From: Naegleria gruberi
Taxonomy: Eukaryota
NCBI GenBank assembly: GCA_000004985.1
Contig: GG738858.1
Length of the DNA stretch: 64,000 nucleotides
Strand: one strand, 5' to 3'
The position numbers and the translations under genes were made by a program. Below the pieces are notes generated by a model, which saw nothing but the letters and a program-made list of their open reading frames with translations, did no database searches and had not been told where the DNA came from. Below are positions 1-24,220 of this stretch, in pieces (position 1 is the stretch's first letter; every line of letters begins with the position of its first letter).

Positions 1-3000
1 NNNNNNNNNNNNNNNNNNNNNNNNNNNNNNNNNNNNNNNNNNNNNNNNNNNNNNNNNNNNNNNNNNNNNNNNNNNNNNNNNNNNNNNNNNNNNNNNNNNN
101 NNNNNNNNNNNNNNNNNNNNNNNNNNNNNNNNNNNNNNNNNNNNNNNNNNNNNNNNNNNNNNNNNNNNNNNNNNNNNNNNNNNNNNNNNNNNNNNNNNNN
201 NNNNNNNNNNNNNNNNNNNNNNNNNNNNNNNNNNNNNNNNNNNNNNNNNNNNNNNNNNNNNNNNNNNNNNNNNNNNNNNNNNNNNNNNNNNNNNNNNNNN
301 NNNNNNNNNNNNNNNNNNNNNNNNNNNNNNNNNNNNNNNNNNNNNNNNNNNNNNNNNNNNNNNNNNNNNNNNNNNNNNNNNNNNNNNNNNNNNNNNNNNN
401 NNNNNNNNNNNNNNNNNNNNNNNNNNNNNNNNNNNNNNNNNNNNNNNNNNNNNNNNNNNNNNNNNNNNNNNNNNNNNNNNNNNNNNNNNNNNNNNNNNNN
501 NNNNNNNNNNNNNNNNNNNNNNNNNNNNNNNNNNNNNNNNNNNNNNNNNNNNNNNNNNNNNNNNNNNNNNNNNNNNNNNNNNNNNNNNNNNNNNNNNNNN
601 NNNNNNNNNNNNNNNNNNNNNNNNNNNNNNNNNNNNNNNNNNNNNNNNNNNNNNNNNNNNNNNNNNNNNNNNNNNNNNNNNNNNNNNNNNNNNNNNNNNN
701 NNNNNNNNNNNNNNNNNNNNNNNNNNNNNNNNNNNNNNNNNNNNNNNNNNNNNNNNNNNNNNNNNNNNNNNNNNNNNNNNNNNNNNNNNNNNNNNNNNNN
801 NNNNNNNNNNNNNNNNNNNNNNNNNNNNNNNNNNNNNNNNNNNNNNNNNNNNNNNNNNNNNNNNNNNNNNNNNNNNNNNNNNNNNNNNNNNNNNNNNNNN
901 NNNNNNNNNNNNNNNNNNNNNNNNNNNNNNNNNNNNNNNNNNNNNNNNNNNNNNNNNNNNNNNNNNNNNNNNNNNNNNNNNNNNNNNNNNNNNNNNNNNN
1001 NNNNNNNNNNNNNNNNNNNNNNNNNNNNNNNNNNNNNNNNNNNNNNNNNNNNNNNNNNNNNNNNNNNNNNNNNNNNNNNNNNNNNNNNNNNNNNNNNNNN
1101 NNNNNNNNNNNNNNNNNNNNNNNNNNNNNNNNNNNNNNNNNNNNNNNNNNNNNNNNNNNNNNNNNNNNNNNNNNNNNNNNNNNNNNNNNNNNNNNNNNNN
1201 NNNNNNNNNNNNNNNNNNNNNNNNNNNNNNNNNNNNNNNNNNNNNNNNNNNNNNNNNNNNNNNNNNNNNNNNNNNNNNNNNNNNNNNNNNNNNNNNNNNN
1301 NNNNNNNNNNNNNNNNNNNNNNNNNNNNNNNNNNNNNNNNNNNNNNNNNNNNNNNNNNNNNNNNNNNNNNNNNNNNNNNNNNNNNNNNNNNNNNNNNNNN
1401 NNNNNNNNNNNNNNNNNNNNNNNNNNNNNNNNNNNNNNNNNNNNNNNNNNNNNNNNNNNNNNNNNNNNNNNNNNNNNNNNNNNNNNNNNNNNNNNNNNNN
1501 NNNNNNNNNNNNNNNNNNNNNNNNNNNNNNNNNNNNNNNNNNNNNNNNNNNNNNNNNNNNNNNNNNNNNNNNNNNNNNNNNNNNNNNNNNNNNNNNNNNN
1601 NNNNNNNNNNNNNNNNNNNNNNNNNNNNNNNNNNNNNNNNNNNNNNNNNNNNNNNNNNNNNNNNNNNNNNNNNNNNNNNNNNNNNNNNNNNNNNNNNNNN
1701 NNNNNNNNNNNNNNNNNNNNNNNNNNNNNNNNNNNNNNNNNNNNNNNNNNNNNNNNNNNNNNNNNNNNNNNNNNNNNNNNNNNNNNNNNNNNNNNNNNNN
1801 NNNNNNNNNNNNNNNNNNNNNNNNNNNNNNNNNNNNNNNNNNNNNNNNNNNNNNNNNNNNNNNNNNNNNNNNNNNNNNNNNNNNNNNNNNNNNNNNNNNN
1901 NNNNNNNNNNNNNNNNNNNNNNNNNNNNNNNNNNNNNNNNNNNNNNNNNNNNNNNNNNNNNNNNNNNNNNNNNNNNNNNNNNNNNNNNNNNNNNNNNNNN
2001 NNNNNNNNNNNNNNNNNNNNNNNNNNNNNNNNNNNNNNNNNNNNNNNNNNNNNNNNNNNNNNNNNNNNNNNNNNNNNNNNNNNNNNNNNNNNNNNNNNNN
2101 NNNNNNNNNNNNNNNNNNNNNNNNNNNNNNNNNNNNNNNNNNNNNNNNNNNNNNNNNNNNNNNNNNNNNNNNNNNNNNNNNNNNNNNNNNNNNNNNNNNN
2201 NNNNNNNNNNNNNNNNNNNNNNNNNNNNNNNNNNNNNNNNNNNNNNNNNNNNNNNNNNNNNNNNNNNNNNNNNNNNNNNNNNNNNNNNNNNNNNNNNNNN
2301 NNNNNNNNNNNNNNNNNNNNNNNNNNNNNNNNNNNNNNNNNNNNNNNNNNNNNNNNNNNNNNNNNNNNNNNNNNNNNNNNNNNNNNNNNNNNNNNNNNNN
2401 NNNNNNNNNNNNNNNNNNNNNNNNNNNNNNNNNNNNNNNNNNNNNNNNNNNNNNNNNNNNNNNNNNNNNNNNNNNNNNNNNNNNNNNNNNNNNNNNNNNN
2501 NNNNNNNNNNNNNNNNNNNNNNNNNNNNNNNNNNNNNNNNNNNNNNNNNNNNNNNNNNNNNNNNNNNNNNNNNNNNNNNNNNNNNNNNNNNNNNNNNNNN
2601 NNNNNNNNNNNNNNNNNNNNNNNNNNNNNNNNNNNNNNNNNNNNNNNNNNNNNNNNNNNNNNNNNNNNNNNNNNNNNNNNNNNNNNNNNNNNNNNNNNNN
2701 NNNNNNNNNNNNNNNNNNNNNNNNNNNNNNNNNNNNNNNNNNNNNNNNNNNNNNNNNNNNNNNNNNNNNNNNNNNNNNNNNNNNNNNNNNNNNNNNNNNN
2801 NNNNNNNNNNNNNNNNNNNNNNNNNNNNNNNNNNNNNNNNNNNNNNNNNNNNNNNNNNNNNNNNNNNNNNNNNNNNNNNNNNNNNNNNNNNNNNNNNNNN
2901 NNNNNNNNNNNNNNNNNNNNNNNNNNNNNNNNNNNNNNNNNNNNNNNNNNNNNNNNNNNNNNNNNNNNNNNNNNNNNNNNNNNNNNNNNNNNNNNNNNNN

Positions 3001-6000
3001 NNNNNNNNNNNNNNNNNNNNNNNNNNNNNNNNNNNNNNNNNNNNNNNNNNNNNNNNNNNNNNNNNNNNNNNNNNNNNNNNNNNNNNNNNNNNNNNNNNNN
3101 NNNNNNNNNNNNNNNNNNNNNNNNNNNNNNNNNNNNNNNNNNNNNNNNNNNNNNNNNNNNNNNNNNNNNNNNNNNNNNNNNNNNNNNNNNNNNNNNNNNN
3201 NNNNNNNNNNNNNNNNNNNNNNNNNNNNNNNNNNNNNNNNNNNNNNNNNNNNNNNNNNNNNNNNNNNNNNNNNNNNNNNNNNNNNNNNNNNNNNNNNNNN
3301 NNNNNNNNNNNNNNNNNNNNNNNNNNNNNNNNNNNNNNNNNNNNNNNNNNNNNNNNNNNNNNNNNNNNNNNNNNNNNNNNNNNNNNNNNNNNNNNNNNNN
3401 NNNNNNNNNNNNNNNNNNNNNNNNNNNNNNNNNNNNNNNNNNNNNNNNNNNNNNNNNNNNNNNNNNNNNNNNNNNNNNNNNNNNNNNNNNNNNNNNNNNN
3501 NNNNNNNNNNNNNNNNNNNNNNNNNNNNNNNNNNNNNNNNNNNNNNNNNNNNNNNNNNNNNNNNNNNNNNNNNNNNNNNNNNNNNNNNNNNNNNNNNNNN
3601 NNNNNNNNNNNNNNNNNNNNNNNNNNNNNNNNNNNNNNNNNNNNNNNNNNNNNNNNNNNNNNNNNNNNNNNNNNNNNNNNNNNNNNNNNNNNNNNNNNNN
3701 NNNNNNNNNNNNNNNNNNNNNNNNNNNNNNNNNNNNNNNNNNNNNNNNNNNNNNNNNNNNNNNNNNNNNNNNNNNNNNNNNNNNNNNNNNNNNNNNNNNN
3801 NNNNNNNNNNNNNNNNNNNNNNNNNNNNNNNNNNNNNNNNNNNNNNNNNNNNNNNNNNNNNNNNNNNNNNNNNNNNNNNNNNNNNNNNNNNNNNNNNNNN
3901 NNNNNNNNNNNNNNNNNNNNNNNNNNNNNNNNNNNNNNNNNNNNNNNNNNNNNNNNNNNNNNNNNNNNNNNNNNNNNNNNNNNNNNNNNNNNNNNNNNNN
4001 NNNNNNNNNNNNNNNNNNNNNNNNNNNNNNNNNNNNNNNNNNNNNNNNNNNNNNNNNNNNNNNNNNNNNNNNNNNNNNNNNNNNNNNNNNNNNNNNNNNN
4101 NNNNNNNNNNNNNNNNNNNNNNNNNNNNNNNNNNNNNNNNNNNNNNNNNNNNNNNNNNNNNNNNNNNNNNNNNNNNNNNNNNNNNNNNNNNNNNNNNNNN
4201 NNNNNNNNNNNNNNNNNNNNNNNNNNNNNNNNNNNNNNNNNNNNNNNNNNNNNNNNNNNNNNNNNNNNNNNNNNNNNNNNNNNNNNNNNNNNNNNNNNNN
4301 NNNNNNNNNNNNNNNNNNNNNNNNNNNNNNNNNNNNNNNNNNNNNNNNNNNNNNNNNNNNNNNNNNNNNNNNNNNNNNNNNNNNNNNNNNNNNNNNNNNN
4401 NNNNNNNNNNNNNNNNNNNNNNNNNNNNNNNNNNNNNNNNNNNNNNNNNNNNNNNNNNNNNNNNNNNNNNNNNNNNNNNNNNNNNNNNNNNNNNNNNNNN
4501 NNNNNNNNNNNNNNNNNNNNNNNNNNNNNNNNNNNNNNNNNNNNNNNNNNNNNNNNNNNNNNNNNNNNNNNNNNNNNNNNNNNNNNNNNNNNNNNNNNNN
4601 NNNNNNNNNNNNNNNNNNNNNNNNNNNNNNNNNNNNNNNNNNNNNNNNNNNNNNNNNNNNNNNNNNNNNNNNNNNNNNNNNNNNNNNNNNNNNNNNNNNN
4701 NNNNNNNNNNNNNNNNNNNNNNNNNNNNNNNNNNNNNNNNNNNNNNNNNNNNNNNNNNNNNNNNNNNNNNNNNNNNNNNNNNNNNNNNNNNNNNNNNNNN
4801 NNNNNNNNNNNNNNNNNNNNNNNNNNNNNNNNNNNNNNNNNNNNNNNNNNNNNNNNNNNNNNNNNNNNNNNNNNNNNNNNNNNNNNNNNNNNNNNNNNNN
4901 NNNNNNNNNNNNNNNNNNNNNNNNNNNNNNNNNNNNNNNNNNNNNNNNNNNNNNNNNNNNNNNNNNNNNNNNNNNNNNNNNNNNNNNNNNNNNNNNNNNN
5001 NNNNNNNNNNNNNNNNNNNNNNNNNNNNNNNNNNNNNNNNNNNNNNNNNNNNNNNNNNNNNNNNNNNNNNNNNNNNNNNNNNNNNNNNNNNNNNNNNNNN
5101 NNNNNNNNNNNNNNNNNNNNNNNNNNNNNNNNNNNNNNNNNNNNNNNNNNNNNNNNNNNNNNNNNNNNNNNNNNNNNNNNNNNNNNNNNNNNNNNNNNNN
5201 NNNNNNNNNNNNNNNNNNNNNNNNNNNNNNNNNNNNNNNNNNNNNNNNNNNNNNNNNNNNNNNNNNNNNNNNNNNNNNNNNNNNNNNNNNNNNNNNNNNN
5301 NNNNNNNNNNNNNNNNNNNNNNNNNNNNNNNNNNNNNNNNNNNNNNNNNNNNNNNNNNNNNNNNNNNNNNNNNNNNNNNNNNNNNNNNNNNNNNNNNNNN
5401 NNNNNNNNNNNNNNNNNNNNNNNNNNNNNNNNNNNNNNNNNNNNNNNNNNNNNNNNNNNNNNNNNNNNNNNNNNNNNNNNNNNNNNNNNNNNNNNNNNNN
5501 NNNNNNNNNNNNNNNNNNNNNNNNNNNNNNNNNNNNNNNNNNNNNNNNNNNNNNNNNNNNNNNNNNNNNNNNNNNNNNNNNNNNNNNNNNNNNNNNNNNN
5601 NNNNNNNNNNNNNNNNNNNNNNNNNNNNNNNNNNNNNNNNNNNNNNNNNNNNNNNNNNNNNNNNNNNNNNNNNNNNNNNNNNNNNNNNNNNNNNNNNNNN
5701 NNNNNNNNNNNNNNNNNNNNNNNNNNNNNNNNNNNNNNNNNNNNNNNNNNNNNNNNNNNNNNNNNNNNNNNNNNNNNNNNNNNNNNNNNNNNNNNNNNNN
5801 NNNNNNNNNNNNNNNNNNNNNNNNNNNNNNNNNNNNNNNNNNNNNNNNNNNNNNNNNNNNNNNNNNNNNNNNNNNNNNNNNNNNNNNNNNNNNNNNNNNN
5901 NNNNNNNNNNNNNNNNNNNNNNNNNNNNNNNNNNNNNNNNNNNNNNNNNNNNNNNNNNNNNNNNNNNNNNNNNNNNNNNNNNNNNNNNNNNNNNNNNNNN

Positions 6001-6306
6001 NNNNNNNNNNNNNNNNNNNNNNNNNNNNNNNNNNNNNNNNNNNNNNNNNNNNNNNNNNNNNNNNNNNNNNNNNNNNNNNNNNNNNNNNNNNNNNNNNNNN
6101 NNNNNNNNNNNNNNNNNNNNNNNNNNNNNNNNNNNNNNNNNNNNNNNNNNNNNNNNNNNNNNNNNNNNNNNNNNNNNNNNNNNNNNNNNNNNNNNNNNNN
6201 NNNNNNNNNNNNNNNNNNNNNNNNNNNNNNNNNNNNNNNNNNNNNNNNNNNNNNNNNNNNNNNNNNNNNNNNNNNNNNNNNNNNNNNNNNNNNNNNNNNN
6301 NNNNNN
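1..6306. other. Assembly gap (N run, 6306 nt). Shorter N gaps also lie at 7720-7769, 16182-17230, 18905-19430 and 21671-22048, with a single n at 7822.
   Basis: Runs of n in the sequence itself. Confidence 0.99.
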
Positions 6307-7719
6307 AATTTTTTAAACAAAGAATAAACATTTTATTTGTATATTTACACTACATTAAATAATAAATTAATAATATTAATTAAATTAAATATTAAATTAA
6401 TAATATTAATTAAATTAAATAATAATACTAATATTAATTAATAAATTAAATATTAAATATTAAAGATAATAATTATTATTTTTTAATCTATTTTCATAAT
6501 GTAATAATTGTAATTCAAAACCAGTATTAGGTTGTACAATATTTCTTTTTTGTTTAACGAATTGTAAAGTATTAAAATAAGACCATTGATTTTTTCTCAT
6601 TAAATATGCAATTAAAATGGAAGCACTTCTACTTTTACCTTTCATACAATGTATTAAAACATTTTCATTATTATTTAAACATTTATCAATATAATTAAAT
6701 GATTCATCAAATGTATGATCTATTTGTTCATCTGACATGTCATATAAATGTAAATTTAAATATGAAAATCCTTCATTAGGATAAAATGGTTCTAATGATT
6801 TTACACAAGTTACAATATTTGTTATATTATGATTTTTTAATTCAGGTACATTCATTGCATCATTTATATCTCCTAAATATAAATTATCAGTTATTTTAGA
6901 GGCTAAAAAATTATTTGAATATGGTAAATAATATCTAACTTGTTGATGGGCTTGATAATAATATGATAATACTGATCGGAATATTGATGATTTTGTATAT
7001 TTTACATTATTATTTGTATTATTATTTGTATTGGTATTAATAGTTTGATCATCAGTTGATTGATCAGTAATAGTTGTTGTTGTTGGAGTGGTTGGAGTGG
7101 TTGGAGTATTATTTGAAGCCATTTTTTTTTTAAATGAATTTATTAATAGAAATATCTATTTATTGCAAATGAAAAGTGAACATCACGTTTGAAATTAATA
7201 CTTCTTTAGAGGGCTTGGTAATTAATTAAATTTTCAATTTTCTCCTTCATTCACTATTATTTTATATAACAAAGCATCAATATTGAAGGTCTATTGTTAA
7301 TACTCACTGCATCTTTGAAAAAAAACAGATCTTCTTAAGGTGAAATTCATAGAATGTCGTTGAAAATCCAGATGTTTTGTTTAATTTTAAGGCCAACCCA
7401 GATTCGTTTTATATTTCTATGATGTCTTCCTGCGTTTAATTAATAACAATGGTAAGGTCATGTTGACCACGTAATATCATGAACATTTAACTCAACACGG
7501 GAGCTATTGTTATGATAGGCAATCATATTCAATGGTAGTTCTTCGAACTTGTAAATGAGGTACGCTATTGATAACGACAACAATGGATTACAAATAGTCT
7601 AAGTGGTGTTTAGATGTACGCGCAAATTTCGGTTGTTCATTTAATATTTTATTTTAAGTCTATATATTACTGTATATTTCCAATCAACCGCTGTCAAGTT
7701 TGATTTTTGTAACCTGTAA
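6307..7719. repeat. Tandem duplication unit, copy A (truncated on both sides by gaps). Covers DUSP gene A plus its 3' flank and upstream region.
   Basis: 6307-7140 is essentially identical to 7985-8810 apart from a 9-nt indel and a few substitutions in the coding TTP repeat. 7140-7719 is a diverged, indel-rich homologue of 8810-9700. Example: 'ccacgtaatatcatgaacat...gtctaagtggtgttt' vs 'ccacgtaatatcacgaacat...gtctaagttgtgttt'. Confidence 0.85.
6460..7122 (-). CDS. Dual-specificity protein phosphatase (DUSP/MKP-type catalytic domain) with an N-terminal Thr/Pro/Asn-rich region. Copy A.
   Basis: 220-aa ORF with ATG at 7120-7122. Active-site signature 'VLIHCMKGKSRSASILIAYLM' (HCxxGxxRS, CX5R). 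General DUSP fold motifs: 'LYLGD...NIT.IV.C', 'PNTGFELQLLHYE'. Confidence 0.8.
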   Translation of the reverse strand: MASNNTPTTPTTPTTTTITDQSTDDQTINTNTNNNTNNNVKYTKSSIFRSVLSYYYQAHQQVRYYLPYSNNFLASKITDNLYLGDINDAMNVPELKNHNITNIVTCVKSLEPFYPNEGFSYLNLHLYDMSDEQIDHTFDESFNYIDKCLNNNENVLIHCMKGKSRSASILIAYLMRKNQWSYFNTLQFVKQKRNIVQPNTGFELQLLHYENRLKNNNYYL

Positions 7720-7984
7720 NNNNNNNNNNNNNNNNNNNNNNNNNNNNNNNNNNNNNNNNNNNNNNNNNNTATCAAAAGAGAAAGATTAACATGTTAGAGC
7801 TCAATATCTCTATGGCTATATNTCAGCTGTTCAATAGAGATGATATATTGTATAATGGAATCTGTTGCTACTACTACATGGTGCTCTTACTAATTTTGAA
7901 GAAGTGCATCTAATACTACTAAAACTATATTGTTGAGTTTAAAACACAAGAATATCTTTGAAAATCTAGTTGACACACTAATAA

Positions 7985-9700
7985 TAAATTTTTAAACAAA
8001 GAATAAACATTTTATTTGTATATTTACACTACATTAAATAATAAATTAATAATATTAATTAAATTAAATATTAAATTAATAATATTAATTAAATTAAATA
8101 ATAATACTAATATTAATTAATAAATTAAATATTAAATATTAAAGATAATAATTATTATTTTTTAATCTATTTTCATAATGTAATAATTGTAATTCAAAAC
8201 CAGTATTAGGTTGTACAATATTTCTTTTTTGTTTAACGAATTGTAAAGTATTAAAATAAGACCATTGATTTTTTCTCATTAAATATGCAATTAAAATGGA
8301 AGCACTTCTACTTTTACCTTTCATACAATGTATTAAAACATTTTCATTATTATTTAAACATTTATCAATATAATTAAATGATTCATCAAATGTATGATCT
8401 ATTTGTTCATCTGACATGTCATATAAATGTAAATTTAAATATGAAAATCCTTCATTAGGATAAAATGGTTCTAATGATTTTACACAAGTTACTATATTTG
8501 TTATATTATGATTTTTTAATTCAGGTACATTCATTGCATCATTTATATCTCCTAAATATAAATTATCAGTTATTTTAGAGGCTAAAAAATTATTTGAATA
8601 TGGTAAATAATATCTAACTTGTTGATGGGCTTGATAATAATATGATAATACTGATCGGAATATTGATGATTTTGTATATTTTACATTATTATTTGTATTA
8701 TTATTTGTATTGGTATTAATAGTTTCATCATCAGTTGATCGATCAGTAATAGTTATTGTTGTTGGAGTGGTTGGAGTATTATTTGAAGCCATTTTTTTTT
8801 AAATGAATTTATTAATAGAAATATCTATTTTATTGAGAAAGTACTCAAATGAAAAGTGAACAATTTTACATTATCATCACGTTTGAAATTAATTTCTCCT
8901 GAGGAAGATTTTGAAAATACTCTTGTCAGAGCGCTTTGTAATTAATTAAATTTTCAATTTTCTCCTTCACATTTTAACTGACTTGAATAATTCACTAAGC
9001 ATTCAACATTGACTCAATTTTGAGCCATTATTTTTATTTTATTGAAAGCTGAAGGTCTATTGTTAGCACTGGATTTTGTAAAAAAGAGATTCTTCTAAGG
9101 TGTGAAATTCATAGAAGAAAAGAATGTCGAATATCCCGATGTTTGATTCACCCCTATGTCTAATAATAAGCGATTGAAGGATTCGTATTTCAAGTCAATT
9201 GTTAGAGGGTTGGAGAATGTGTACGAAATTGGCATCTGCTGAGAGAAAGGACAGTTCGTTTACTCTTTTACAAGACTCCTCTGCAACAATTTGTACATTA
9301 TAGGAAGGCCTTGATTGGTGAGTATAATATACGAATATTATCAAGAAGCGAAGCAGGATCCTATTGTCAAGAGCCAACCAGAAACTGTAGTACACTCCAC
9401 TACTGCTTCTGCTTCTGCTTCAGTAGACCACGTAATATCACGAACATCTAAAACTCACCAAGTTCACTGCTACCGTTATTATTGTCAAGTATATTCACTA
9501 CTATTTTCAAACTTGTATATGAGGTGCAGTTATGAAAACGGCAACAACAAATTGAAACTAGTCTAAGTTGTGTTTTGAGGTACGCATCAGCTGGATACAT
9601 TTAGCTTGGTAATGGTTCATTGTATATTTTGATTAAGTCTATAACTGAATATTTATCCGCTGTTAAGTTTGAATAGCATAACATTTTTGCACTATGGTAA
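7985..9700. repeat. Tandem duplication unit, copy B. Period is about 1.68 kb.
   Basis: See copy A. The 3' AT-rich flank (minisatellite-like 'taattaaattaaatattaaattaataatat' doublet), the CDS and about 20 nt of 5' leader are conserved. The promoter side has diverged. Confidence 0.85.
8139..8792 (-). CDS. Dual-specificity protein phosphatase, copy B. 217 aa.
   Basis: Identical to copy A except the N-terminal TTP repeat ('TTPTTITITDRSTDDETINT' vs 'TTPTTPTTTTITDQSTDDQTINT'). Same HCxxGxxRS motif. Confidence 0.8.
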   Translation of the reverse strand: MASNNTPTTPTTITITDRSTDDETINTNTNNNTNNNVKYTKSSIFRSVLSYYYQAHQQVRYYLPYSNNFLASKITDNLYLGDINDAMNVPELKNHNITNIVTCVKSLEPFYPNEGFSYLNLHLYDMSDEQIDHTFDESFNYIDKCLNNNENVLIHCMKGKSRSASILIAYLMRKNQWSYFNTLQFVKQKRNIVQPNTGFELQLLHYENRLKNNNYYL

Positions 9701-10460
9701 ACTTTTACGATCCGAGGTGAAACTTTAAGTTTTCTATCAGTATTTATTCTTTCCATTATATTATTTTATTTGCATTGTATATACATCTGTTATGTGTTGC
9801 TACTATTTTCTAAATTGCTAGTATACACACCGACTATCAACGAAGAACTTAATAAATGTCTAACAATACTTTATCAAGAAACTATCACATTAGAAGATCA
9901 ACAATGGAAAATGAATACGCACCTACACACATTTCTATTACTCTGTTGCCTTGTGAATAAATGTAAGTTGTTTTTGTCTCTTGCATAAATAACTATTTGA
10001 TAGGCCGCCTTGATAATTCTTTACTAAATTGTTTTTAATCATCTTTGCAAATTGGGTATGCCTTCTGATTCTCCTCCTGCCTTCATGATTAGTTCTTGGT
10101 TATTAAAATGGTTTGGAGGAAACTGGAAGAGGAGCAGAAAATCTTCCTTTAATGTTGTTCATTCGATTTGATAACTAACAATCCCAGAAGATGTACTTTG
10201 GATAAGAATAATTCATTCAATTACCTGGCGATATTGGAGAGTATGAAGATTGTGGATCGAGTGGAGGAGTCATGTTGGGAACAAACAATCCAGTCAAGAG
10301 TAATCCACTCTCCAATCTTGACATTTCACTTGTTGATAAGCAGAGACTTTTAATGCAAAAATTCAACTTGCCTTTCATTGTGAGAACAGGTTCAACATTT
10401 CAAGATATTCATAATCAAAAAGATGAGAATTTTAAAATTCAAGTTAATTTATTATTGAAT

Positions 10461-11093
10461 TTACAAAGCACCACAATCAGCAATCTTAACTTCAGACAAT
10501 GGAGTATCACGTTGGTTAGTCTTTGATCCTTCAATCTTCTTAATAATTTCATAACCTTCAACAACCTTTCCGAAAACAACGTGCTTACCGTCCAACCATG
10601 GGCATGGAACAGTAGTAACGAAGAATTGGGAACCATTGGTATTCTTACCAGCATTAGCCATTGACAACAATCCTGGAATGGTGTGCTTTTCCTTAAAGTT
10701 TTCATCTTCAAACTTTGTACCATAGATGGACTTACCACCAGTACCATTAAAGTTAGTAAAATCACCACCTTGAATCATGAAATCTTTAATGACTATTTAC
10801 ATGATTGTATTATTAATATTATATTATTATTAATATTATTGTTGGTTAGCAAGTAGTGTTGGTTGGTTGGTTGATATAAATAATTTTAGATTAATAAAGG
10901 CTTGATAATAATATTAAAATAACATACCTCTGTGGAAGATAGAACCCTTGTATCCGAATCCCTTTTCTCCAGTACACAAAGCTCTGAAGTTTTCAGCAGT
11001 CTTTGGGACAATATCATTGTACAATTCAAAGACAACTCTACCAGCTGGGGCAGCACCGATGGTAATATCAAAGAAAACTCTTGATCTAGACAT
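10461..11093 (-). CDS. Cyclophilin A-type peptidyl-prolyl cis-trans isomerase. Two exons: 11093..10928 and 10792..10461. Intron 10793-10927 (gtatgtt...aaatag on the minus strand).
   Basis: The spliced product reads '[80 protein letters not shown]...[18 protein letters not shown]...' and is 165 aa, which is cyclophilin length. The junction reconstitutes the conserved '[13 protein letters not shown]' motif. Confidence 0.88.
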
Positions 11094-11405
11094 TTTTTTT
11101 CAAGTTTTAAAATATTTTATTAATTCCGTCAAGGTTGAAAAACTTTTTTGATAGGAGCGAGCTTAATCAAGCCTCCACCAACAACACAACAACATTCAAG
11201 TGGCTTTAGTTTACAATAGATTTTGTATTTTCATTTTAACTTACATCATGACTAATTAGATCTTTTCAATTAATTAATACAATAACAAGAATAAGAATGT
11301 TACTAATTTGAAATTTTATTGAATAGTTTTAATTGTTGTTTCATGTATTTTCATTTAAACACAAAGGCTTTTAAATGATCAAAAGTCTAAAATCTATTAA
11401 AATGA

Positions 11406-12866
11406 TTAATCCAAATCATCAAAATTCTTTTCACCACTACCACCACTACCATCATTATCATCACCATGACTACTACCATGACTATTATTATTATTATTAA
11501 TATTATTAATATTATGTTCATGTTGTTGTAAATCTTCATTAAAAGTATTTAAATTAATCATTTGACCATTTTCATCAATTTTAATTAAAGTACCAGGTTT
11601 AACTAAATTTCTAGTTTGAATTGCTTGAATAATTTGATCTAAATTTGAATTATTTAATTCAATTAATTTATCTAAATATGGATGTAAATATTCCAAACCA
11701 AAAGGTAAATCTGAAATTAATTGTAAACATTCAATAGTTAATTGTTGAATAAAAATAGGAAAATTAGAATTTAATTGATAATATAATAAATCAAATAAAT
11801 TTAAATTTGTATCATTTGCATAAATTATATTTGGAATTAAATTTTTTTTAAATAAACAATTTTTTAAAATTGCTAAAATTGATCTTCTTCTTAAACATTT
11901 ATCTTGTTGAATATCTAAATTATTTAATAAATCTAAATTATTATTTTTAAATAATAATAAATGTAAATATGATATATTACAATTATTATTTACAATTATA
12001 TATTTAGCATGATCATTTACACTTAAATTACCTAATATAGTAGGTATTAAATGTGATGATATTAATGATATTTTTAATTCATTCATTGGTCTATTAAAAT
12101 AATTAATTAATTTCATTATATTATATTCTTTTAATTCATCTAAATTATCTGAATCAGAATCAGAATCTGACTCAGTGTCAGAATCATCATCTGAATCATC
12201 TGAATCATTAGATTTTAAATTAGCCTTTTTTAATTTTTTTAAAGTTTCTTCAATTGTTTTCATATTTAAAAATTTTAATCTTGCTTGTTCAGAATTTGAA
12301 GTTAAATTTGATAATAATAATAAAATACATTCTAATGTATCTTTATCATTTTGATTTAATTCATTATTTAATTCTCTTCTTTCCATTTTAATAAAAATAT
12401 TCATTAAAATTTGAATTAAATCATTTTTAACCATTTCATTAAAAAATATAGTTGATTCATCTTGTGATAATAAAATTAAACATGAAATTGATAATTTTGA
12501 TACAAAATGTGATTTATCACTTGTTAAATTAACAAGTGTTTTAATACATTTTTCTAATACTCTAATTGTAAATCTTAAATTATTTAAATATTCTTCAATT
12601 CTTAAAAATTTTAATAAATTTGATAATCCTGTTATACGAACTTGTTCATTATTATGTGAACAAAAATCAATTAATTCTTCAAAACTTTGTTTTTCTTCTC
12701 TTGTTAACATTCCAATATTTGATGATTTTTTAATAGTACTTGTACTAGTAATATTATTATTATTATTATTATTATTAGAATCGTCATCAATTGTTACAGT
12801 ATTAGATAATGATGAAGGCTTGTTGTTGTTGGTAGTAGAAGCCTTGTCGTTGTTATTGTTGGACAT
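11406..12866 (-). CDS. Hypothetical alpha-helical, possibly ARM/HEAT-like protein (486 aa). Has Asn/Thr-rich ends and an acidic DSDDSDDDSDTESDSDSDSD stretch. Possible HGH1/FAM203-like, low certainty.
   Basis: Long intact ORF with ATG at 12864-12866 and the codon usage of neighbouring genes. The family assignment rests only on repeat-like helical composition. Confidence 0.55.
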   Translation of the reverse strand: MSNNNNDKASTTNNNKPSSLSNTVTIDDDSNNNNNNNNITSTSTIKKSSNIGMLTREEKQSFEELIDFCSHNNEQVRITGLSNLLKFLRIEEYLNNLRFTIRVLEKCIKTLVNLTSDKSHFVSKLSISCLILLSQDESTIFFNEMVKNDLIQILMNIFIKMERRELNNELNQNDKDTLECILLLLSNLTSNSEQARLKFLNMKTIEETLKKLKKANLKSNDSDDSDDDSDTESDSDSDSDNLDELKEYNIMKLINYFNRPMNELKISLISSHLIPTILGNLSVNDHAKYIIVNNNCNISYLHLLLFKNNNLDLLNNLDIQQDKCLRRRSILAILKNCLFKKNLIPNIIYANDTNLNLFDLLYYQLNSNFPIFIQQLTIECLQLISDLPFGLEYLHPYLDKLIELNNSNLDQIIQAIQTRNLVKPGTLIKIDENGQMINLNTFNEDLQQHEHNINNINNNNNSHGSSHGDDNDGSGGSGEKNFDDLD

Positions 12867-13159
12867 TTTTTTTTATTCGTATTGGAAGGAATTAGAGTTA
12901 GACCTCACGAATGATGGAAAGGCTTTCCGAAGGCTTTGACTTCAACAAAATAGCTGAATAATATTATTATTATTATGAATAATCTGGTTTATTATTAAAA
13001 CAATTTAGAGATTATTAGTATCTTGACAAAACTTGGTAACTCCCTCACCAAATGCTTCATTCAAAGTTGGTTTTTCAACTTTTAAATTACTAAATTTACC
13101 ATTTTTAATTTCTTCCATTGCTTTCTTTGATATTTTACAATTAGTAATAATTACACATG

Positions 13160-13513
13160 TTACATGTTCTTTGAATGATTTTTACTTAAACCTTTGCATG
13201 ATTCATCATCATCAGGTTGAACAATTGCCTTTTCAAATTTTTCATAAATTTTAGCAATATCATTACAATATAATGTTCTATTTATGGTTGTATATTTATA
13301 TTGAATAGCTATAATCTTTCCATTTTCAGTACATTGTATTGCATCAATTCCTTCCTGATTTACTTTACTTGATAATTGTAATATATTTGGAATGTATTGT
13401 TCTTTTTCTTTACAAATCTTTGTAACAACTCTAAATACTTCTTCAATAGTTAAATTATTATTATTATTATTATTAATATTTAAATTATTAATATTTAAAT
13501 TATTATTATTTAA

Positions 13514-13546
<33 letters not shown>

Positions 13547-14299
13547 ATTTAAATCTTGTAAAGTAATTTGATTATTATTTTCTTTTAAACAAATTAATTT
13601 TGCTTGTGTAAGAAGTGTTTCTGTTATTTCAAATGGTTTAAAAGCAAGTGAAGAATGATGTTCAGTAAAATATGCCAATATATTATATTTTTGATATAAT
13701 TTACTTTTAAATTCATTTTTAATATCAAAATTTTTAATAAAATATTTAAATAAACAACTTGTAAATATTTTTGGTAATTTATATGTATTTGAATGTTCAT
13801 CAATTGTACAATATTGTAATAATTCAATTGGTATTTCAACATTTAATAATCTATCACATAATTTAATATTAAATATTGAACTTAATAATTTAATAATTAC
13901 ATCTTTAGATAAATTTAATTGAATAATTTCACTGTATAAAATATCATTTAGATTTGTTATTAATGATGAAAATCTTGGACTATATTCATAATCATCTTCA
14001 TTTAAATATTTAAATGATTCATTATTTATTAATATTTTTACTATTTTAGGATGAACTACATCTCCTAATAAGGAATGTAAACGATTGAATATTGATGGTT
14101 TAATATTTAATAATAGACTATCTATTTTAATTGATGATTTGATAGTACTACTATATTGAATAGTATTTATATTATTATTATTAATATTACAAAAATATTT
14201 AATATTTAAAATATTATTATGAGATTTAATAAATCTAAAAGATGATGATGCTGATGCTGATGATTTAATAACAGTATTAATATATAATCTAGATAACAT
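13160..14299 (-). CDS. Hypothetical protein (379 aa) with an N-terminal mitochondrial-presequence-like segment ('MLSRLYINTVIKSSASASSSFRFIKS') and an internal Asn/Leu low-complexity region. A further 3' exon at about 13037-13139 is possible.
   Basis: Intact ORF. Minus-strand 'gtttaagt' follows the last sense codon, and there is a downstream in-frame segment 'KAMEEIKNGKFSNLKVEKPTLNEAFGEGVTKFCQDTNNL*'. Confidence 0.5.
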
Positions 14300-14755
14300 A
14301 TTGTTTTTGATAATGAATTAATAGAATTACATCTCAATAGTGTTGATTATTAAGGTTTTAAATGTGACATCAAATGATGATGATGTGATGGATGAAAATA
14401 TTAAGGTGATAATGATATGGTGATGGTGGTGGTGTGTTACTATGAACAATTGTACATCACATCATCAATAGAGTGTGAATATGACTAGTAGATTTAAATA
14501 CAACACCACTATCATTATCATCATCATTATTATTTTGTTGATATCAATTAATTGTTATTCATATAATATTTAATAATAATAATATTAATTAGTATTATTA
14601 TGTAATATTTGGTTTAAAAGCACAGGCTGACTTTGCTTTCAAACATTAGTAGTAATAATCCACATTGGATTTTGTGTTTAATATTGTGAATATTTTGTTC
14701 AACAAATTAACTGATGATTTTCAAAATAATAATAATAGCTGAATAATTGAATAAA

Positions 14756-15787
14756 ATGTCACCAGCAGTTTCATCAAATAAGAGTAGTAGACATCAACAA
14801 CAACAACAACGAGGAAGTAGTGGAGTAGTAAATCAATCCCAAATAGCCTCCAAATCATCATCATCAACACAACAAAAACCAATTAAATTATTACCAATTT
14901 TACAACAAGCATCAGAGGCTTCTAACAACAAGCCTTCCTCTAACAAAAAGCCTTCTTCAATAATTGAAGAACAACAAAACAAGGCTAGTTTAGTATCGGA
15001 GCCTAAAATTATTAAATTTTCCTCTCTAGTCAATTTAGAATCTATTAAAAATCCATATGATATTGCATCATCCAATCATGATAATAATATAAATTTTAAT
15101 AACAAACATTCATCATTAGATGGTAAAGAAAAACAAATAGCCTTAACAATACGTGAAAAGAAGGAATTGAAACAATTAGAACATTCCAAATATATGGAAA
15201 AATTAAAAGAATATTCTCAAGATATTAAACATACACGTAAAGGTGAAGCCTTTGATATTGAAAATAATAGATATATATCTAGAAAGAATGAATTACAAAA
15301 AGAAATGGATCAATTAACATTTGAAATGAAAAAATTTGTCTATGATCAAACATTTAACAAATCCCAAAATGGAAATATGGTTACAAATCAAGAATTATCA
15401 GAAAAACAAAAATTTAAAATTAAACAAATGATGAAAGAAGAATATAGACAACAAGGTAAAGATGTATCTTCTTTAAATGAAAAGTCTAAATATGTTAATT
15501 ATAAAGAATTTAAACAAGAAAAACAAAAAGAATTAAAAATGGAAAGAATTGAAACTAGAGAAATGATTAAAAATGGAATTTTAGATAAAAAACAATTAAG
15601 AAAAAAGAGATTAATGGAACAACAACGTAAATCTTCACAAACTAGAAAATTTTATGCTAAACATGGTGCTCCTAATGAAATTGGTGTTGCTGCTATTAAA
15701 TCTAAATATGGTAAAGGTGGTGCTGTTGGTAAATGGAAAGGTGGTATGTTACATATTAGGAAGGAAGATTTATATACTTTAAAATAA
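14756..15787 (+). CDS. Lys/Glu-rich hypothetical protein, possibly nucleolar or ribosome-biogenesis-like. About 343 aa.
   Basis: The ORF-track start at 14747 is a TTG; the first ATG is 14756 (MSPAVSS...). Charged coiled-coil-like body. C-terminal tail 'FYAKHGAPNEIGVAAIKSKYGKGGAVGKWKGGMLHIRKEDLYTLK'. Confidence 0.55.
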   Translation: MSPAVSSNKSSRHQQQQQRGSSGVVNQSQIASKSSSSTQQKPIKLLPILQQASEASNNKPSSNKKPSSIIEEQQNKASLVSEPKIIKFSSLVNLESIKNPYDIASSNHDNNINFNNKHSSLDGKEKQIALTIREKKELKQLEHSKYMEKLKEYSQDIKHTRKGEAFDIENNRYISRKNELQKEMDQLTFEMKKFVYDQTFNKSQNGNMVTNQELSEKQKFKIKQMMKEEYRQQGKDVSSLNEKSKYVNYKEFKQEKQKELKMERIETREMIKNGILDKKQLRKKRLMEQQRKSSQTRKFYAKHGAPNEIGVAAIKSKYGKGGAVGKWKGGMLHIRKEDLYTLK

Positions 15788-15953
15788 ATATTTTTATTAT
15801 TTATTTTATTTAATTTAATATTTTATTTAATTATATTATATTATATTATTATAATTTATTTTTTATTTAATAATTCTAATAATTGTTCTTGTTTGTTTTT
15901 TAATAATTCCTTTCTCTTTCTCTTCATAATTTTAACATTATCTTTATAAATTG

Positions 15954-16181
15954 TTAATTTCTTTGAATTATCTTTTTTAACTTTATCTGCAAGTGATTGT
16001 TTTTCATGTTTCTTTTCATCTCTTTTTTTTCTTCTTTCTAATTTTGATTGTTTCTTTTTATCAGATATTTCCTGTATTGAAGAAGAATCCGATGATGATT
16101 GTTCTGTTTGTTGATTTATTTCAATTGATTGTCTATATTCATCAAAGAGACGAAGTTGAAATTCTAAAAGTGATTTACTCA
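15954..16181 (-). CDS. 3' end of a gene whose body lies in the 16182-17230 gap. The C-terminal fragment is Lys-rich.
   Basis: Minus-strand ORF reading '...SKSLLEFQLRLFDEYRQSIEINQQTEQSSSDSSSIQEISDKKKQSKLERRKKEMKRN...*' and running into the N run. Stop (tta on plus) at 15954-15956. Confidence 0.35.
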
Positions 16182-17346
16182 NNNNNNNNNNNNNNNNNNN
16201 NNNNNNNNNNNNNNNNNNNNNNNNNNNNNNNNNNNNNNNNNNNNNNNNNNNNNNNNNNNNNNNNNNNNNNNNNNNNNNNNNNNNNNNNNNNNNNNNNNNN
16301 NNNNNNNNNNNNNNNNNNNNNNNNNNNNNNNNNNNNNNNNNNNNNNNNNNNNNNNNNNNNNNNNNNNNNNNNNNNNNNNNNNNNNNNNNNNNNNNNNNNN
16401 NNNNNNNNNNNNNNNNNNNNNNNNNNNNNNNNNNNNNNNNNNNNNNNNNNNNNNNNNNNNNNNNNNNNNNNNNNNNNNNNNNNNNNNNNNNNNNNNNNNN
16501 NNNNNNNNNNNNNNNNNNNNNNNNNNNNNNNNNNNNNNNNNNNNNNNNNNNNNNNNNNNNNNNNNNNNNNNNNNNNNNNNNNNNNNNNNNNNNNNNNNNN
16601 NNNNNNNNNNNNNNNNNNNNNNNNNNNNNNNNNNNNNNNNNNNNNNNNNNNNNNNNNNNNNNNNNNNNNNNNNNNNNNNNNNNNNNNNNNNNNNNNNNNN
16701 NNNNNNNNNNNNNNNNNNNNNNNNNNNNNNNNNNNNNNNNNNNNNNNNNNNNNNNNNNNNNNNNNNNNNNNNNNNNNNNNNNNNNNNNNNNNNNNNNNNN
16801 NNNNNNNNNNNNNNNNNNNNNNNNNNNNNNNNNNNNNNNNNNNNNNNNNNNNNNNNNNNNNNNNNNNNNNNNNNNNNNNNNNNNNNNNNNNNNNNNNNNN
16901 NNNNNNNNNNNNNNNNNNNNNNNNNNNNNNNNNNNNNNNNNNNNNNNNNNNNNNNNNNNNNNNNNNNNNNNNNNNNNNNNNNNNNNNNNNNNNNNNNNNN
17001 NNNNNNNNNNNNNNNNNNNNNNNNNNNNNNNNNNNNNNNNNNNNNNNNNNNNNNNNNNNNNNNNNNNNNNNNNNNNNNNNNNNNNNNNNNNNNNNNNNNN
17101 NNNNNNNNNNNNNNNNNNNNNNNNNNNNNNNNNNNNNNNNNNNNNNNNNNNNNNNNNNNNNNNNNNNNNNNNNNNNNNNNNNNNNNNNNNNNNNNNNNNN
17201 NNNNNNNNNNNNNNNNNNNNNNNNNNNNNNTTGCAATATATTCCAAAAAATTAATAAAAATATTTTTTATTTTAATAATATATATAAAAATGGATACAAA
17301 ATTAAATAGTAAATACTACATTAAATTAATAATTATATCATTTAAA

Positions 17347-18265
17347 TTACTTCTTCTTCTTCTTCTTTGCAGCAAGAGCAGCAGCAGCACCACTAACACC
17401 ACTTCCACTTCCAACACCACGTACTTGTTCAGGAGTTAATAAGGTTTTTTGTCCCTTTTTGTGAAGAACTGATTTTTGAGCTTCAACATCTGATGAACCT
17501 TGATGTCCAAATCCCATCAAATTACCTGAATGTTTCTTCTTTGTTTCCCATCTTGATTTAAATGTTTCACTTTGTTCATTTAACATACTATGAATTGGAA
17601 GTTTGTTTCTTCTCTTCTTTCTTTGTTTCTTCTTTTCTTCTCTATTCAATGCATCAGCTTGTCTATTACCACCACCCATTGTTGTTGATGATGATGTCTT
17701 GTTAGATGATGATGATGAATTAATAGATTGAATATCAATTTTACTAATAGAAAGTGTAGAAGTATTAGAAGAAGAAGTAATATTAGATGAAGAAGTAATA
17801 TTTGAAATAATTGATGAAGTCTTTTCAATTTCATCAATATTCTTCTTAATGGATGTAGAAGATGTGAAGATTGTAAATCTTTACAATATTTCTCAGCAGA
17901 ATCAATATCATAAAAAGACATGGCTTCAATTAAACCAGCAGTGTGAAGTGAAACATTTTTAGAATCTAATTTAATTAACATTTCAAAAGTAGATGCAGCT
18001 TGTTCATATTTTTTAAATTGTAATTGTAATTTAGCTAATTCATTTGCCATTTCAATTAAATCTTCCTTTTTAGATGAAGATGATAATTTTTTAATGACTT
18101 GTTGTAACATTTCCAATGCAGAATTCATATCATCAATTTTCATATAAAGTGCAATAATTAAACTTTGAATTGATTTTTCATTAATTAATTTAGATTCTTT
18201 TAATAATTCAATACATTCTTTATATTTACCTTGTTGTAAATATAATTGTACAAGTACTAATTCTA

Positions 18266-18296
<31 letters not shown>

Positions 18297-19878
18297 GTAT
18301 TATTATTAGTATTACTAGTATTAGTATTATTATTATTATTGTTAATATTTTTAATATAATTTTTTAATAATTGAATAGATTGATCAAATTTCTTTTGTTT
18401 AAAATATAAATGTGATAAAATTAAAGTTGGAATTTCTGAATTATTATACTAAATAAATTAAATAATTCATTTTGAATAATTTTTTCACATTCATCAAATT
18501 TACCTAAATGTAATTGTAATAAACAATTATTTAAAGTAACACCTCTAATTTGTTCAGTTGTTAATTTACCTTGTAATTTATCTTGATAAGCATGTTTTAA
18601 TTTCTTTTGAGCTTCCAAATCAAAATGTGTTGTATTACCATTATTAGAATTACTATTATTAGTAGTTACATCTAAAATAGCAACAAGATTATTAGCAGCA
18701 ACTGCACCTGCAACTGTATCTTTAGATTGTGTAAAAACTTGTTCAAATAATTTTTTAGAAACATCAACTTGTCCATTTAAATATTTAACATAAGCTAATT
18801 GTACTAAAATGGAAGAAATTTCATTTGTATCTTCAATTTTACATAATTTTTGTGCAAATTCTAAATATTTCTCAGCTTGTTCATAATCTTTTAATCCAAT
18901 AGATNNNNNNNNNNNNNNNNNNNNNNNNNNNNNNNNNNNNNNNNNNNNNNNNNNNNNNNNNNNNNNNNNNNNNNNNNNNNNNNNNNNNNNNNNNNNNNNN
19001 NNNNNNNNNNNNNNNNNNNNNNNNNNNNNNNNNNNNNNNNNNNNNNNNNNNNNNNNNNNNNNNNNNNNNNNNNNNNNNNNNNNNNNNNNNNNNNNNNNNN
19101 NNNNNNNNNNNNNNNNNNNNNNNNNNNNNNNNNNNNNNNNNNNNNNNNNNNNNNNNNNNNNNNNNNNNNNNNNNNNNNNNNNNNNNNNNNNNNNNNNNNN
19201 NNNNNNNNNNNNNNNNNNNNNNNNNNNNNNNNNNNNNNNNNNNNNNNNNNNNNNNNNNNNNNNNNNNNNNNNNNNNNNNNNNNNNNNNNNNNNNNNNNNN
19301 NNNNNNNNNNNNNNNNNNNNNNNNNNNNNNNNNNNNNNNNNNNNNNNNNNNNNNNNNNNNNNNNNNNNNNNNNNNNNNNNNNNNNNNNNNNNNNNNNNNN
19401 NNNNNNNNNNNNNNNNNNNNNNNNNNNNNNGCTAATAATAATTCATTAGTATTATTTAATTCATTTCTATTAGATTGAATAATTTTCAAGGCTTCCTCTG
19501 CTTTATTTAATCTATACAAGGAATAAATCTTTTGAAAATTAGTGGATTGCAAATTTTCAATAACCTTGTTAAATTCTCCTTTTTGAATTTGATTAACAAT
19601 TTTTAATTGTTTTAATTGATTATTATTCTTATCATTGGATAATACTATTATTATTATTATATGATGAAGATGATCAAGATGGTAATGTTGATGATTAATA
19701 TGAAAGACGGAGAAGAAGATTAATACAGATAAGATTAAAATGATGATGAATATATATTCAACTACTACTAATATAACAACATACACTTTTCCAATGTAGA
19801 ATGAATTAAATCTTCATCTTCATCTTCGATGGCTTGTTTTAATTGTTGATAATTGGACAAGAGATTCTTTGGTGCCAT
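17347..19878 (-). CDS. Signal recognition particle 72-kDa subunit (SRP72) homologue. Multi-exon, interrupted by gap 18905-19430.
   Basis: N-terminal exon 'MAPKNLLSNYQQLKQAIEDEDEDLIHSTLEK' (ATG at 19876-19878) followed by minus-strand gtgtatgt. TPR-region match 'FQKIYSLYRLNKAEEALKIIQS' vs human SRP72 'FEKAYCEYRLNRIENALKTIES'. Ser-rich linker and basic C-terminus '...EEKKKQRKKRRNKLPIHS...FKSRWETKKK...AAKKKKKK*', matching the SRP72 'KKKKKGKLPKNYDP...PERWLP' tail. One frame discontinuity near 17860-17900. Confidence 0.6.
18266..18345. repeat. (TTA)n / (ATT)n trinucleotide microsatellite degenerating into tta/gta variants.
   Basis: 'attattattattattattattattattatagtattattattagtattactagtattagtattattattattatt'. 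Confidence 0.9.
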
Positions 19879-21481: not shown

Positions 21482-21654
21482 TATTTAATACATTTTAATA
21501 TATTTTAATATTTAAAATAATTGTTTTTTTTAGTGTTTTTAAAAATCATTGTTGTAATCCATGATGAATTAATATGAGTGAAACTTTGCCAAGTCAATGT
21601 TGATGAGTCATAAAATGTTTCATGTGAAAGCAAACTTTCAAAAAGAGAAGGAAA

Positions 21655-21670
21655 GGGGATCCTCTAGAGT
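21655..21670. other. Cloning-vector polylinker remnant (pUC-type MCS: SmaI half-site, BamHI, XbaI) directly abutting an assembly gap.
   Basis: 'GGGGATCCTCTAGAGT' matches pUC18/19 '...CCCGGGGATCCTCTAGAGTCGAC...' and begins exactly at the SmaI blunt half-site, the classic shotgun-insert junction. Confidence 0.65.
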
Positions 21671-24127: not shown

Positions 24128-24220
24128 TTTTTATGTATTGGAAATTATTTACAATTCATCTCTTTCAATGACATTTAAATATCACCAAATGATGATGATG
24201 ATGATAAACAAGGATGAGAT

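Follow-up and report, generated by a model that had tools for sequence, protein, structure and literature searches.

A probable tandem duplicate of a dual-specificity phosphatase gene in Naegleria gruberi with an identity pattern expected from gene conversion

Two dual-specificity phosphatase (DUSP) genes, near-identical in their bodies and strongly diverged in their upstream DNA, stand side by side in a poorly assembled, AT-rich part of the Naegleria gruberi genome; gene conversion within a tandem pair particular to this species is the likeliest reason for their similarity. The window analysed was the whole 64,000-nucleotide (64-kb) stretch of contig GG738858.1 (assembly GCA_000004985.1), in which this pair is the only significant internal duplication. 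We consider it probable that an older tandem duplication was followed by recent homogenisation of the transcription unit through non-allelic gene conversion. Genes, leaders, flanks, upstream halves, spacers and the coding repeat are all given below on the minus strand.

The coding sequence (CDS) of copy A (6460–7122) is an intact ORF of 220 aa with no intron, a GC3 of 7% and an HCMKGKSRS catalytic loop. That of copy B (8139–8792), at a start-to-start spacing of 1,679 nt, is an intact ORF of 217 aa, whose product corresponds exactly to EFC46622.1/XP_002679366.1 of N. gruberi NEG-M. The GenBank model EFC46621 is a 143-aa fragment of the complete 220-aa ORF; the exact copy A protein was absent from a collection of 15 billion proteins, and the 90% cluster had the two GenBank models as its only members. 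Both products matched Pfam family DSPc (PF00782) at ~1e-30 (106 bits, with a cut-off of 33.5) over profile positions 1–132 of 133. In addition, 70 DUSP chains from the PDB were matched at E < 1e-5, with 3lj8, DUSP10 (1zzw and others) and DUSP22 (1wrm, 6lvq) as the top solved structures (E ~1e-21, residues 72–212), which bears out the assignment of the genes to the DUSPs in the initial annotation.

The P-loop HCxxGxxR(S/T) is present in both copies as HCMKGKSRS, and H158, C159, G162, S164, R165 and S166 were invariant in our alignment (A1). Upstream of the loop, D128 (LYDMSDE) also occupies an invariant column and, by its position, is presumably the general acid. No Pfam domain was found outside residues 72–211, and there was no rhodanese/CH2 domain with its kinase-interaction motif; lacking this docking domain, the protein is not a classical MKP. 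The N-terminus forms a low-complexity Thr/Pro/Asn-rich tail, and a YYYxAxQxxRYYLPY motif occurred, among the sequences aligned, only in Naegleria, Willaertia and related ones. Both genes are accordingly predicted to encode small single-domain ("atypical") DUSPs, and with their intact ORFs, HCxxGxxRS loop and conserved Asp, both copies look functional. The DSPc domain, the P-loop and the upstream Asp are shared with atypical DUSPs such as human DUSP22 and with the catalytic domains of MKPs such as DUSP10, whereas the tail, the YYYxAxQxxRYYLPY motif and the lack of a rhodanese/CH2 domain set the Naegleria protein apart.

The near-identical block comprises the 3' flank, the CDS and the leader of each copy. 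Alignment of 6307–7160 with 7986–8830 yielded 839 matches and five mismatches over 844 aligned bases (~0.6%), with three indel events. One of the mismatches (6309) is just inside the copy A contig, at its third base; the other four lie in the CDS, where 6814 is synonymous and 7047, 7061 and 7076 are non-synonymous. A perfect 9-nt tandem repeat (7082–7107; GTTGGAGTG, 2.9 copies) encodes TTP repeats, and the in-frame 9-nt indel corresponds to one GTTGGAGTG unit fewer in copy B. The few remaining differences sit in the slippage-prone N-terminal Thr/Pro repeat. The leader and core upstream sequence of copy A (7123–7160) is conserved in copy B (8793–8830) but for one T in the poly-T run before the ATG, the length of which differs by 1 nt between the copies. 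The 3' flank of copy A (6307–6459; GC 5%) matches that of copy B (7986–8138) at 152 of 153 positions. It contains an AT-only 30-nt minisatellite (6354–6458, 3.5 copies), which recurs in identical form in copy B (8033–8137). Between the copies, dS (0.008; one synonymous difference) is about equal to dN (0.006). This equality, together with the identity of a fast-evolving minisatellite, indicates that the block is young and shares recent ancestry, rather than being merely constrained.

Beyond this block, similarity falls off steeply. The upstream half of unit A (7161–7719; 559 nt, GC 29%), which runs to the end of its contig, is homologous to that of unit B (8831–9700; 870 nt, GC 33%), a non-coding segment without notable ORFs or Rfam matches, and the two halves differ in length by 311 nt. 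Their alignment comprised 462 matches, 64 mismatches (526 aligned bases) and 59 gap events, so that the mismatch contrast with the gene body (5/844 vs 64/526) is highly significant (Fisher p = 2.7e-22). The decay is stepwise, from 0.6% mismatch up to 7160, through ~2% with seven indels at 7161–7249, to 12–16% thereafter, this last range stemming from a gap-optimised alignment where MAFFT gives ~40%. The homology of the upstream halves is significant: the first BLAST HSP reaches into them as far as 7249/8969, and 7462–7703 is 69% identical to 9423–9672 (E = 2e-21). That the upstream halves belong to a transposon or another repeat family seems unlikely from a search covering the 64-kb window, which found no other copy, no tRNA gene and no Rfam match. 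The initial annotation had described this architecture correctly, namely a near-identical CDS and 3' flank with an in-frame 9-nt indel and few substitutions in the TTP region, and homologous yet heavily diverged promoter-side halves with many indels. Its view that identity extends into the leader also held, except that ~38 nt are kept instead of only the first few.

A plausible history starts with a duplication in N. gruberi that would have covered at least the gene and 0.6–0.9 kb of upstream DNA, giving head-to-tail paralogues old enough for their upstream regions to diverge strongly. Later, one neighbouring copy may have been overwritten with the other by non-allelic gene conversion or by an unequal exchange to the same effect. 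The overwritten tract would approximate the transcription unit, that is, the 3' flank, the CDS and ~40 nt of leader, with ~0.6% difference remaining. The data show the sequence pattern, the protein family, the orthology and the number of copies in relatives; from these we infer conversion as the process, and likewise the tandem order that the scaffold draws. The identity pattern is the one that an older duplicate would acquire if conversion acted on its gene body, as had been proposed at the outset. Divergence changes abruptly along the aligned paralogues (three vs 59 gap events), and homogenisation extends to silent and non-coding sites, among them the leader and the minisatellite of the 3' flank. 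Of the two tract boundaries only the right-hand one can be seen, as the left end lies within the gap. The human fetal gamma-globin pair HBG1/HBG2 is the textbook case of non-allelic gene conversion between tandem paralogues. It shares with the DUSP pair a near-identical block that spans coding and non-coding sites, a sharp boundary and an older, diverged duplicated flank. Unlike HBG1/HBG2, the DUSP pair has a single visible tract boundary, no second species with the duplicate, and a tandem order taken from a gapped scaffold.

In its relatives the locus has one DUSP copy. Some 12 kb of the window (10.4–22.8 kb) are collinear with N. fowleri VFQX01000037.1. The cyclophilin gene (10461–11105; exons ~10461–10793 and ~10905–11105) anchors to N. 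fowleri L006 at 12104–12872, and a second anchor is provided by an HGH1/DUF383-like gene (11406–12866; 486 aa, GC3 6%), the orthologue of N. fowleri FDP41_004496, which shares a contig with the N. fowleri DUSP. The copy-number comparison that the initial annotation had called for found, at the orthologous locus of both N. fowleri and N. lovaniensis, a single DUSP after cyclophilin on the same strand, and the second N. gruberi copy is therefore either specific to this species or artefactual. In an uncultured relative one DUSP precedes the Ank orthologue, and Willaertia has one in an unrelated gene context. A search for the Ank orthologue of N. gruberi brought up no protein from this species, but failed to recover the N. 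fowleri one as well. Where N. gruberi has 9701–10460, the rest of the 1.67 kb of non-coding DNA that separates DUSP B from the stop codon of the cyclophilin gene, the relatives carry an LRR gene (2,744 aa in N. fowleri and 2,642 aa in N. lovaniensis). The unique GC-normal spacer downstream of copy B (7770–7985) matched nothing else in the window and neither the Ank nor the LRR genes of the relatives. The idea that the spacers are remnants of the LRR gene, or of the Ank gene next to DUSP in relatives, was dropped, as neither tblastx nor blastn gave a hit at E < 0.01. A viral or horizontal origin of the AT-rich DUSP cassette, which a GC3 of 6–7% and Asn-rich neighbouring genes had suggested, was likewise rejected, since its closest homologues come from Naegleria and Willaertia and the locus shows synteny with N. 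fowleri.

The state of the assembly weighs against the preferred reading. A run of N (1–6306) reaches the window start and may therefore be longer than the 6,306 nt seen, and copy A begins directly at its edge. The copy A contig (6307–7719; 1,413 nt) is bounded by gaps at both ends, and a gap of exactly 50 N (7720–7769) separates it from the next contig, in which a lone n occurs at 7822, within the spacer downstream of copy B. Of these features, the 6.3-kb gap at which copy A starts, the 50-N gap and the lone n between the copies had been pointed out in the initial annotation. The 50-N gap looks like a floor value, while other gaps appear size-estimated (1049, 526 and 378). The window has five N runs of at least 50, none of them beyond its first 22 kb, which are AT-rich, and a vector polylinker was left untrimmed at a contig end (21655–21670). 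The left edge of the copy A contig breaks off in the 5%-GC minisatellite, which, together with the AT-richness of the first 22 kb, offers a simpler reason for the gap beside copy A than the further hidden copies suggested in the initial annotation.

Under these circumstances, there is an appreciable though minor chance that contig 6307–7719 is the second haplotype of 7986–9700, left unmerged by the Sanger assembler and scaffolded beside its own allele. There would then be one real DUSP with an unusually diverged upstream allele, and the identical block would be a tract of allelic conversion or loss of heterozygosity. NEG-M has been described as a heterozygous diploid (PMC9928731), and the literature searched on N. 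gruberi heterozygosity, haplotypes, AT-rich regions and GC3 contained nothing specific. Duplicated contained contigs lie within 50 kb of their match, with a median identity of 98.1%, and are defined by alignment of >93% of the contig at >95% identity (Kelley and Salzberg 2010, PMC2864568). The geometry of the copy A contig fits this class, in that it is a separate contig of <2 kb that adjoins its match and can be aligned end to end within 7986–9700. The likeness extends to the small contig beside a larger match in a Sanger shotgun assembly of a heterozygous diploid. Furthermore, the identical part (854 nt) is about the length of one Sanger read, which would fit a split confined to reads with an anchor in the diverged part, and the 50-N gap, the low-coverage neighbourhood with its vector remnant and the single copy at the orthologous locus of the relatives all point the same way. 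The caution over misassembly in the initial annotation was therefore justified by this gapped, poorly assembled region and by PMC2864568; its "collapse" was not, since any artefact here would instead be a false duplication of two haplotypes.

Against this, identity exceeds 95% over only 60% of the contig (854/1,413 nt), short of the >93% that defines the class. The other 40%, the upstream remainder, is 59–88% identical to its match, depending on the alignment used. With a substitution divergence of 12–40%, 59 gap events and lengths that differ by 311 nt, it far exceeds ordinary allelic variation and is too diverged and indel-rich to look like an allele. Moreover, it directly adjoins the block with 0.6% difference, and no redundant contigs were found elsewhere in the 64-kb window. 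That 40% of the copy A contig falls far below >95% identity (PMC2864568) thus speaks for a converted tandem duplicate over a typical haplotype artefact.

It is somewhat less likely still that the two genes are real paralogues but not in tandem, with the copy A contig coming from elsewhere in the genome and pulled in by mate pairs within the 850-nt near-identical block. The contig is tiny, repeats its neighbour almost perfectly over 60% of its length and is joined through gaps only; in addition, N. lovaniensis has a DUSP family member at an unlinked site (L005), so the family can duplicate to such sites. The upstream DNA is homologous as well, however, which means that the duplicated segment took in local flank, as in a tandem event, and there is no positive evidence for another location. 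Proximity of copies favours frequent gene conversion, which also argues for neighbouring genes.

The oddest local feature is compositional. Several coding sequences nearby, including those of neighbouring single-copy genes, have a GC3 of 4–7% and stand between GC-normal spacers, so that the AT extreme is limited to coding sequence; the block is GC-normal in N. fowleri. In the DUSP pair, the near-identical block and an extremely AT-rich block roughly correspond, and both approximate the transcription unit. On the left, a compositional change point (7978) coincides with the identity boundary (7986), but an exact coincidence fails on the right, where change points at 7042 and 9047 face identity boundaries at 7160 and 8830. 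A transcript-linked process, such as cDNA-mediated conversion or transcription-coupled AT-directed mutation, might account at once for the homogenised DUSP pair and for the AT extreme of the coding sequences, which we regard as very improbable.

Finally, an account in which equally old copies were held alike in the gene body by purifying selection while their promoters relaxed could draw on the CDS being the conserved part and on both ORFs being intact, but it is effectively refuted by the lone synonymous difference and by the equal identity of the non-coding minisatellite, 153-nt 3' flank and 38-nt leader next to DNA with 64 mismatches and 59 indel events, so that the relaxed promoters alone offered in the initial annotation are insufficient.

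A tandem duplicate homogenised by conversion is an ordinary, already known kind of event and adds nothing new as a mechanism, and its importance beyond genome curation is small. More useful are two by-products, the orthology map to N. fowleri and the finding that the extreme, coding-limited AT enrichment of the N. gruberi block coincides with assembly gaps. If the pair is an artefact, the gene count is one too high and EFC46621 and EFC46622 are a single gene. If it is real, it adds to the lineage-specific tandem duplicates that evolve in concert, and N. gruberi has a heterolobosean-type atypical DUSP in duplicate, each copy with upstream DNA of its own. The same enzyme would then be under two different upstream regions, with a dosage effect or differential regulation as the likely consequence.

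The two dual-specificity phosphatase (DUSP) genes were identified on the minus strand as complete open reading frames (ORFs), copy A at 6460–7122 (220 aa) and copy B at 8139–8792 (217 aa). Both were matched full-length by the Pfam dual-specificity phosphatase catalytic domain (1e-30, 106 bits) and in both the P-loop reads HCMKGKSRS and the upstream Asp is conserved. The top solved-structure matches of the pair were MKP catalytic domains and DUSP22 (E ~1e-21), and the phosphatase assignment of the initial annotation is thus borne out. A second domain was detected in neither copy, and N-terminal residues 1–70 are of low complexity, rich in Thr, Pro and Asn; on these features, both proteins are predicted to be atypical, single-domain DUSPs. 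The copy B protein is identical to EFC46622.1/XP_002679366.1 from a 782-kb scaffold of N. gruberi NEG-M. The adjacent public model, EFC46621.1 for copy A, is a 143-aa "partial" fragment without either end; the ORF in the sequence is nonetheless complete, with start and stop codons.

The two units, 1,679 nt apart from start to start, were compared zone by zone (A coordinates). The 3' flank (6307–6459) contains one mismatch in 153 positions, at contig base 3, and the coding sequence at 6460–7046 a single synonymous one in 587, at 6814, both without indels. The N-terminal repeat of the coding sequence (7047–7122) shows three mismatches, all non-synonymous, and an in-frame 9-nt indel, which corresponds to one repeat unit of the perfect 9-nt tandem array at 7082–7107 and points to slippage. 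The leader (7123–7160) has no mismatches and one T inserted or deleted in a poly-T run. Upstream, 2/88 mismatches with seven indel events (7161–7249) are followed by 62/438 with 52 (7250–7719), as counted from a gap-optimised alignment; MAFFT gave just 59% identity for this region. Homology of the upstream halves is real, with BLAST aligning 7462–7703 to 9423–9672 (E = 2e-21), and the contrast between blocks is strong (mismatches 5/844 versus 64/526; Fisher p = 2.7e-22). The identity pattern had therefore been described accurately in the initial annotation, except that leader conservation extends over ~38 nt rather than the first few, and that its list of differences, correct as to the 9-nt indel and the repeat-region substitutions, omitted the synonymous and the homopolymer difference. 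BLAST found no further duplications within the 64-kb window.

Divergence between the coding sequences is minimal (dS 0.008, dN 0.006), and the 3' flank is an AT-only minisatellite (30-nt period, ×3.5), identical between copies, which purifying selection would not have kept so. From at most 6307 up to 7160 the copies therefore share very recent ancestry, while the DNA directly upstream is old. Similarity falls off in steps upstream, which fits an older duplicate overwritten by one or more conversion tracts that would end near its promoter. We regard true tandem paralogues with conversion as the probable explanation.

The nearest homologues of the DUSPs are Naegleria and Willaertia proteins (identity 58–67%). 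Collinearity with N. fowleri extends across window 10.4–22.8 kb, the common order being cyclophilin, HGH1-like, 383-aa gene, 122-aa gene, SRP72-like, small GTPase and cullin-like. The N. fowleri orthologue (FDP41_004496) of the HGH1/DUF383-like neighbour (11406–12866) shares a contig with the N. fowleri DUSP (FDP41_004493). From that block, the N. fowleri order runs on through cyclophilin(+), a 2,744-aa LRR gene(-), DUSP(+) and an ankyrin (Ank) gene(+), and the LRR–DUSP–Ank arrangement is also found in N. lovaniensis; the equivalent strand of N. gruberi reads cyclophilin, 1.67 kb of non-coding spacer, DUSP B, DUSP A and the gap. By gene order, the N. gruberi DUSP locus is therefore orthologous to that of these relatives, with the LRR gene absent. 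The latter lies between cyclophilin and DUSP on the opposite strand over 8.6 kb (N. fowleri locus L006, 14140–21881, 2,744 aa; N. lovaniensis locus L001, 1122–9732, 2,642 aa), and no relic of it was detectable in the N. gruberi spacer (8793–10460). An intact, Asn-rich 379-aa ORF (13160–14299, minus) is flanked by the HGH1-like gene and by the gene orthologous to the 383-aa one of N. fowleri. The N. fowleri block, although collinear elsewhere, has no counterpart of this ORF, and its only matches were of low complexity.

A comparison of copy number among relatives, as proposed in the initial annotation, returned a single DUSP at the orthologous locus in N. fowleri and N. lovaniensis, one in Willaertia in a different gene context, and one, followed by an Ank orthologue, in an uncultured relative. 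This leaves the second N. gruberi copy as either specific to its lineage or not real. In N. lovaniensis a further paralogue, unlinked to the first (locus L005, PYSW02000002.1, 10001–10600, 199 aa), lies between Peptidase_S58 and HATPase_c genes; its N-terminus resembles that of the syntenic N. lovaniensis copy, which suggests that this species underwent an independent, dispersed duplication in the same family.

The first 6,306 bases of the window (1–6306) are all N and are followed by the copy A contig (6307–7719, 1,413 nt), exactly 50 N (7720–7769) and the copy B contig (7770–16181), the latter containing one isolated n (7822). Further N runs span 16182–17230, 18905–19430 and 21671–22048, so that all five runs of at least 50 in the 64-kb window fall within its AT-rich first 22 kb, the other 42 kb being one unbroken contig. 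Contig 19431–21670 ends at its gap in the 16 nt GGGGATCCTCTAGAGT (21655–21670), a pUC-type SmaI/BamHI/XbaI polylinker from untrimmed cloning vector (one match in the window, none in 100 shuffles; chance expectation none). The misassembly caveat in the initial annotation was thus warranted by suspicious geometry, poor local assembly and a vector remnant.

The copy A contig might be a second haplotype placed beside the first, which we consider unlikely. It is shorter than 2 kb, gap-bounded and aligns at every base inside the neighbouring contig, a layout matching the "duplicated contained contig" of Kelley and Salzberg (PMC2864568), which in Sanger assemblies of heterozygous diploids is often such a haplotype; NEG-M has been described as a heterozygous diploid (PMC9928731), and the neighbourhood is badly assembled, as the clustered N runs and the polylinker attest. 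Although alike in size, gap bounds and containment, copy A departs from that class in identity: its members align over >93% of the contig at >95% identity (median 98.1%), whereas only 60% of the copy A contig exceeds 95%. The rest diverges by tens of per cent, with 59 gap events and a length difference of 311 nt; it resembles old paralogous DNA far more than alleles, and directly adjoins DNA differing by 0.6%. Less likely still, copy A is a real paralogue wrongly placed in the scaffold. Coding-sequence selection with "relaxed promoters" alone, also raised initially, is rejected by the dS and the identical AT-only minisatellite; the initial interpretation was otherwise reasonable, as conversion over the gene body of an older duplicate fits the stepwise decay.

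Copy A ends, at the gap, within a minisatellite of 5% GC, and the other gaps lie in the AT-rich part, so that extreme AT content is sufficient to account for the gap; in the first 22 kb, the assembly may have been fragmented by AT content and not by repeats. Extra DUSP copies hidden in the gap are possible, but indicated by nothing observed here.

GC3 is 4–7% in both DUSPs, the HGH1-like gene, the 379-aa ORF (4%) and the cullin-like gene (22049–24127), and the spacers separating them (window 6307–24200) have 24–33% GC. Coding sequence that is AT-richer than intergenic DNA is the opposite of the usual pattern, and we did not find such coding-limited AT enrichment described in the N. gruberi literature. 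Better-conserved genes are spared (cyclophilin, 10461–10793, GC3 32%; GTPase), and GC3 in the orthologues from N. fowleri and N. lovaniensis is 23–38%. A compositional change point at 7978, left of copy B, falls where the identical block begins; there is no such coincidence on the right. DUSP GC3 is 11% in Willaertia magna and 55% in the uncultured relative (ENA ERZ27315067 k141_138887), and DUSP synonymous composition therefore spans 6% to 55% GC across heteroloboseans. Foreign origin, suspected from composition, is excluded by the Naegleria and Willaertia homologues. The DUSP pair sits in a genome already published and annotated, and the phenomenon is an ordinary one, namely either concerted evolution of a lineage-specific tandem gene duplicate or a false duplication of a routine kind.
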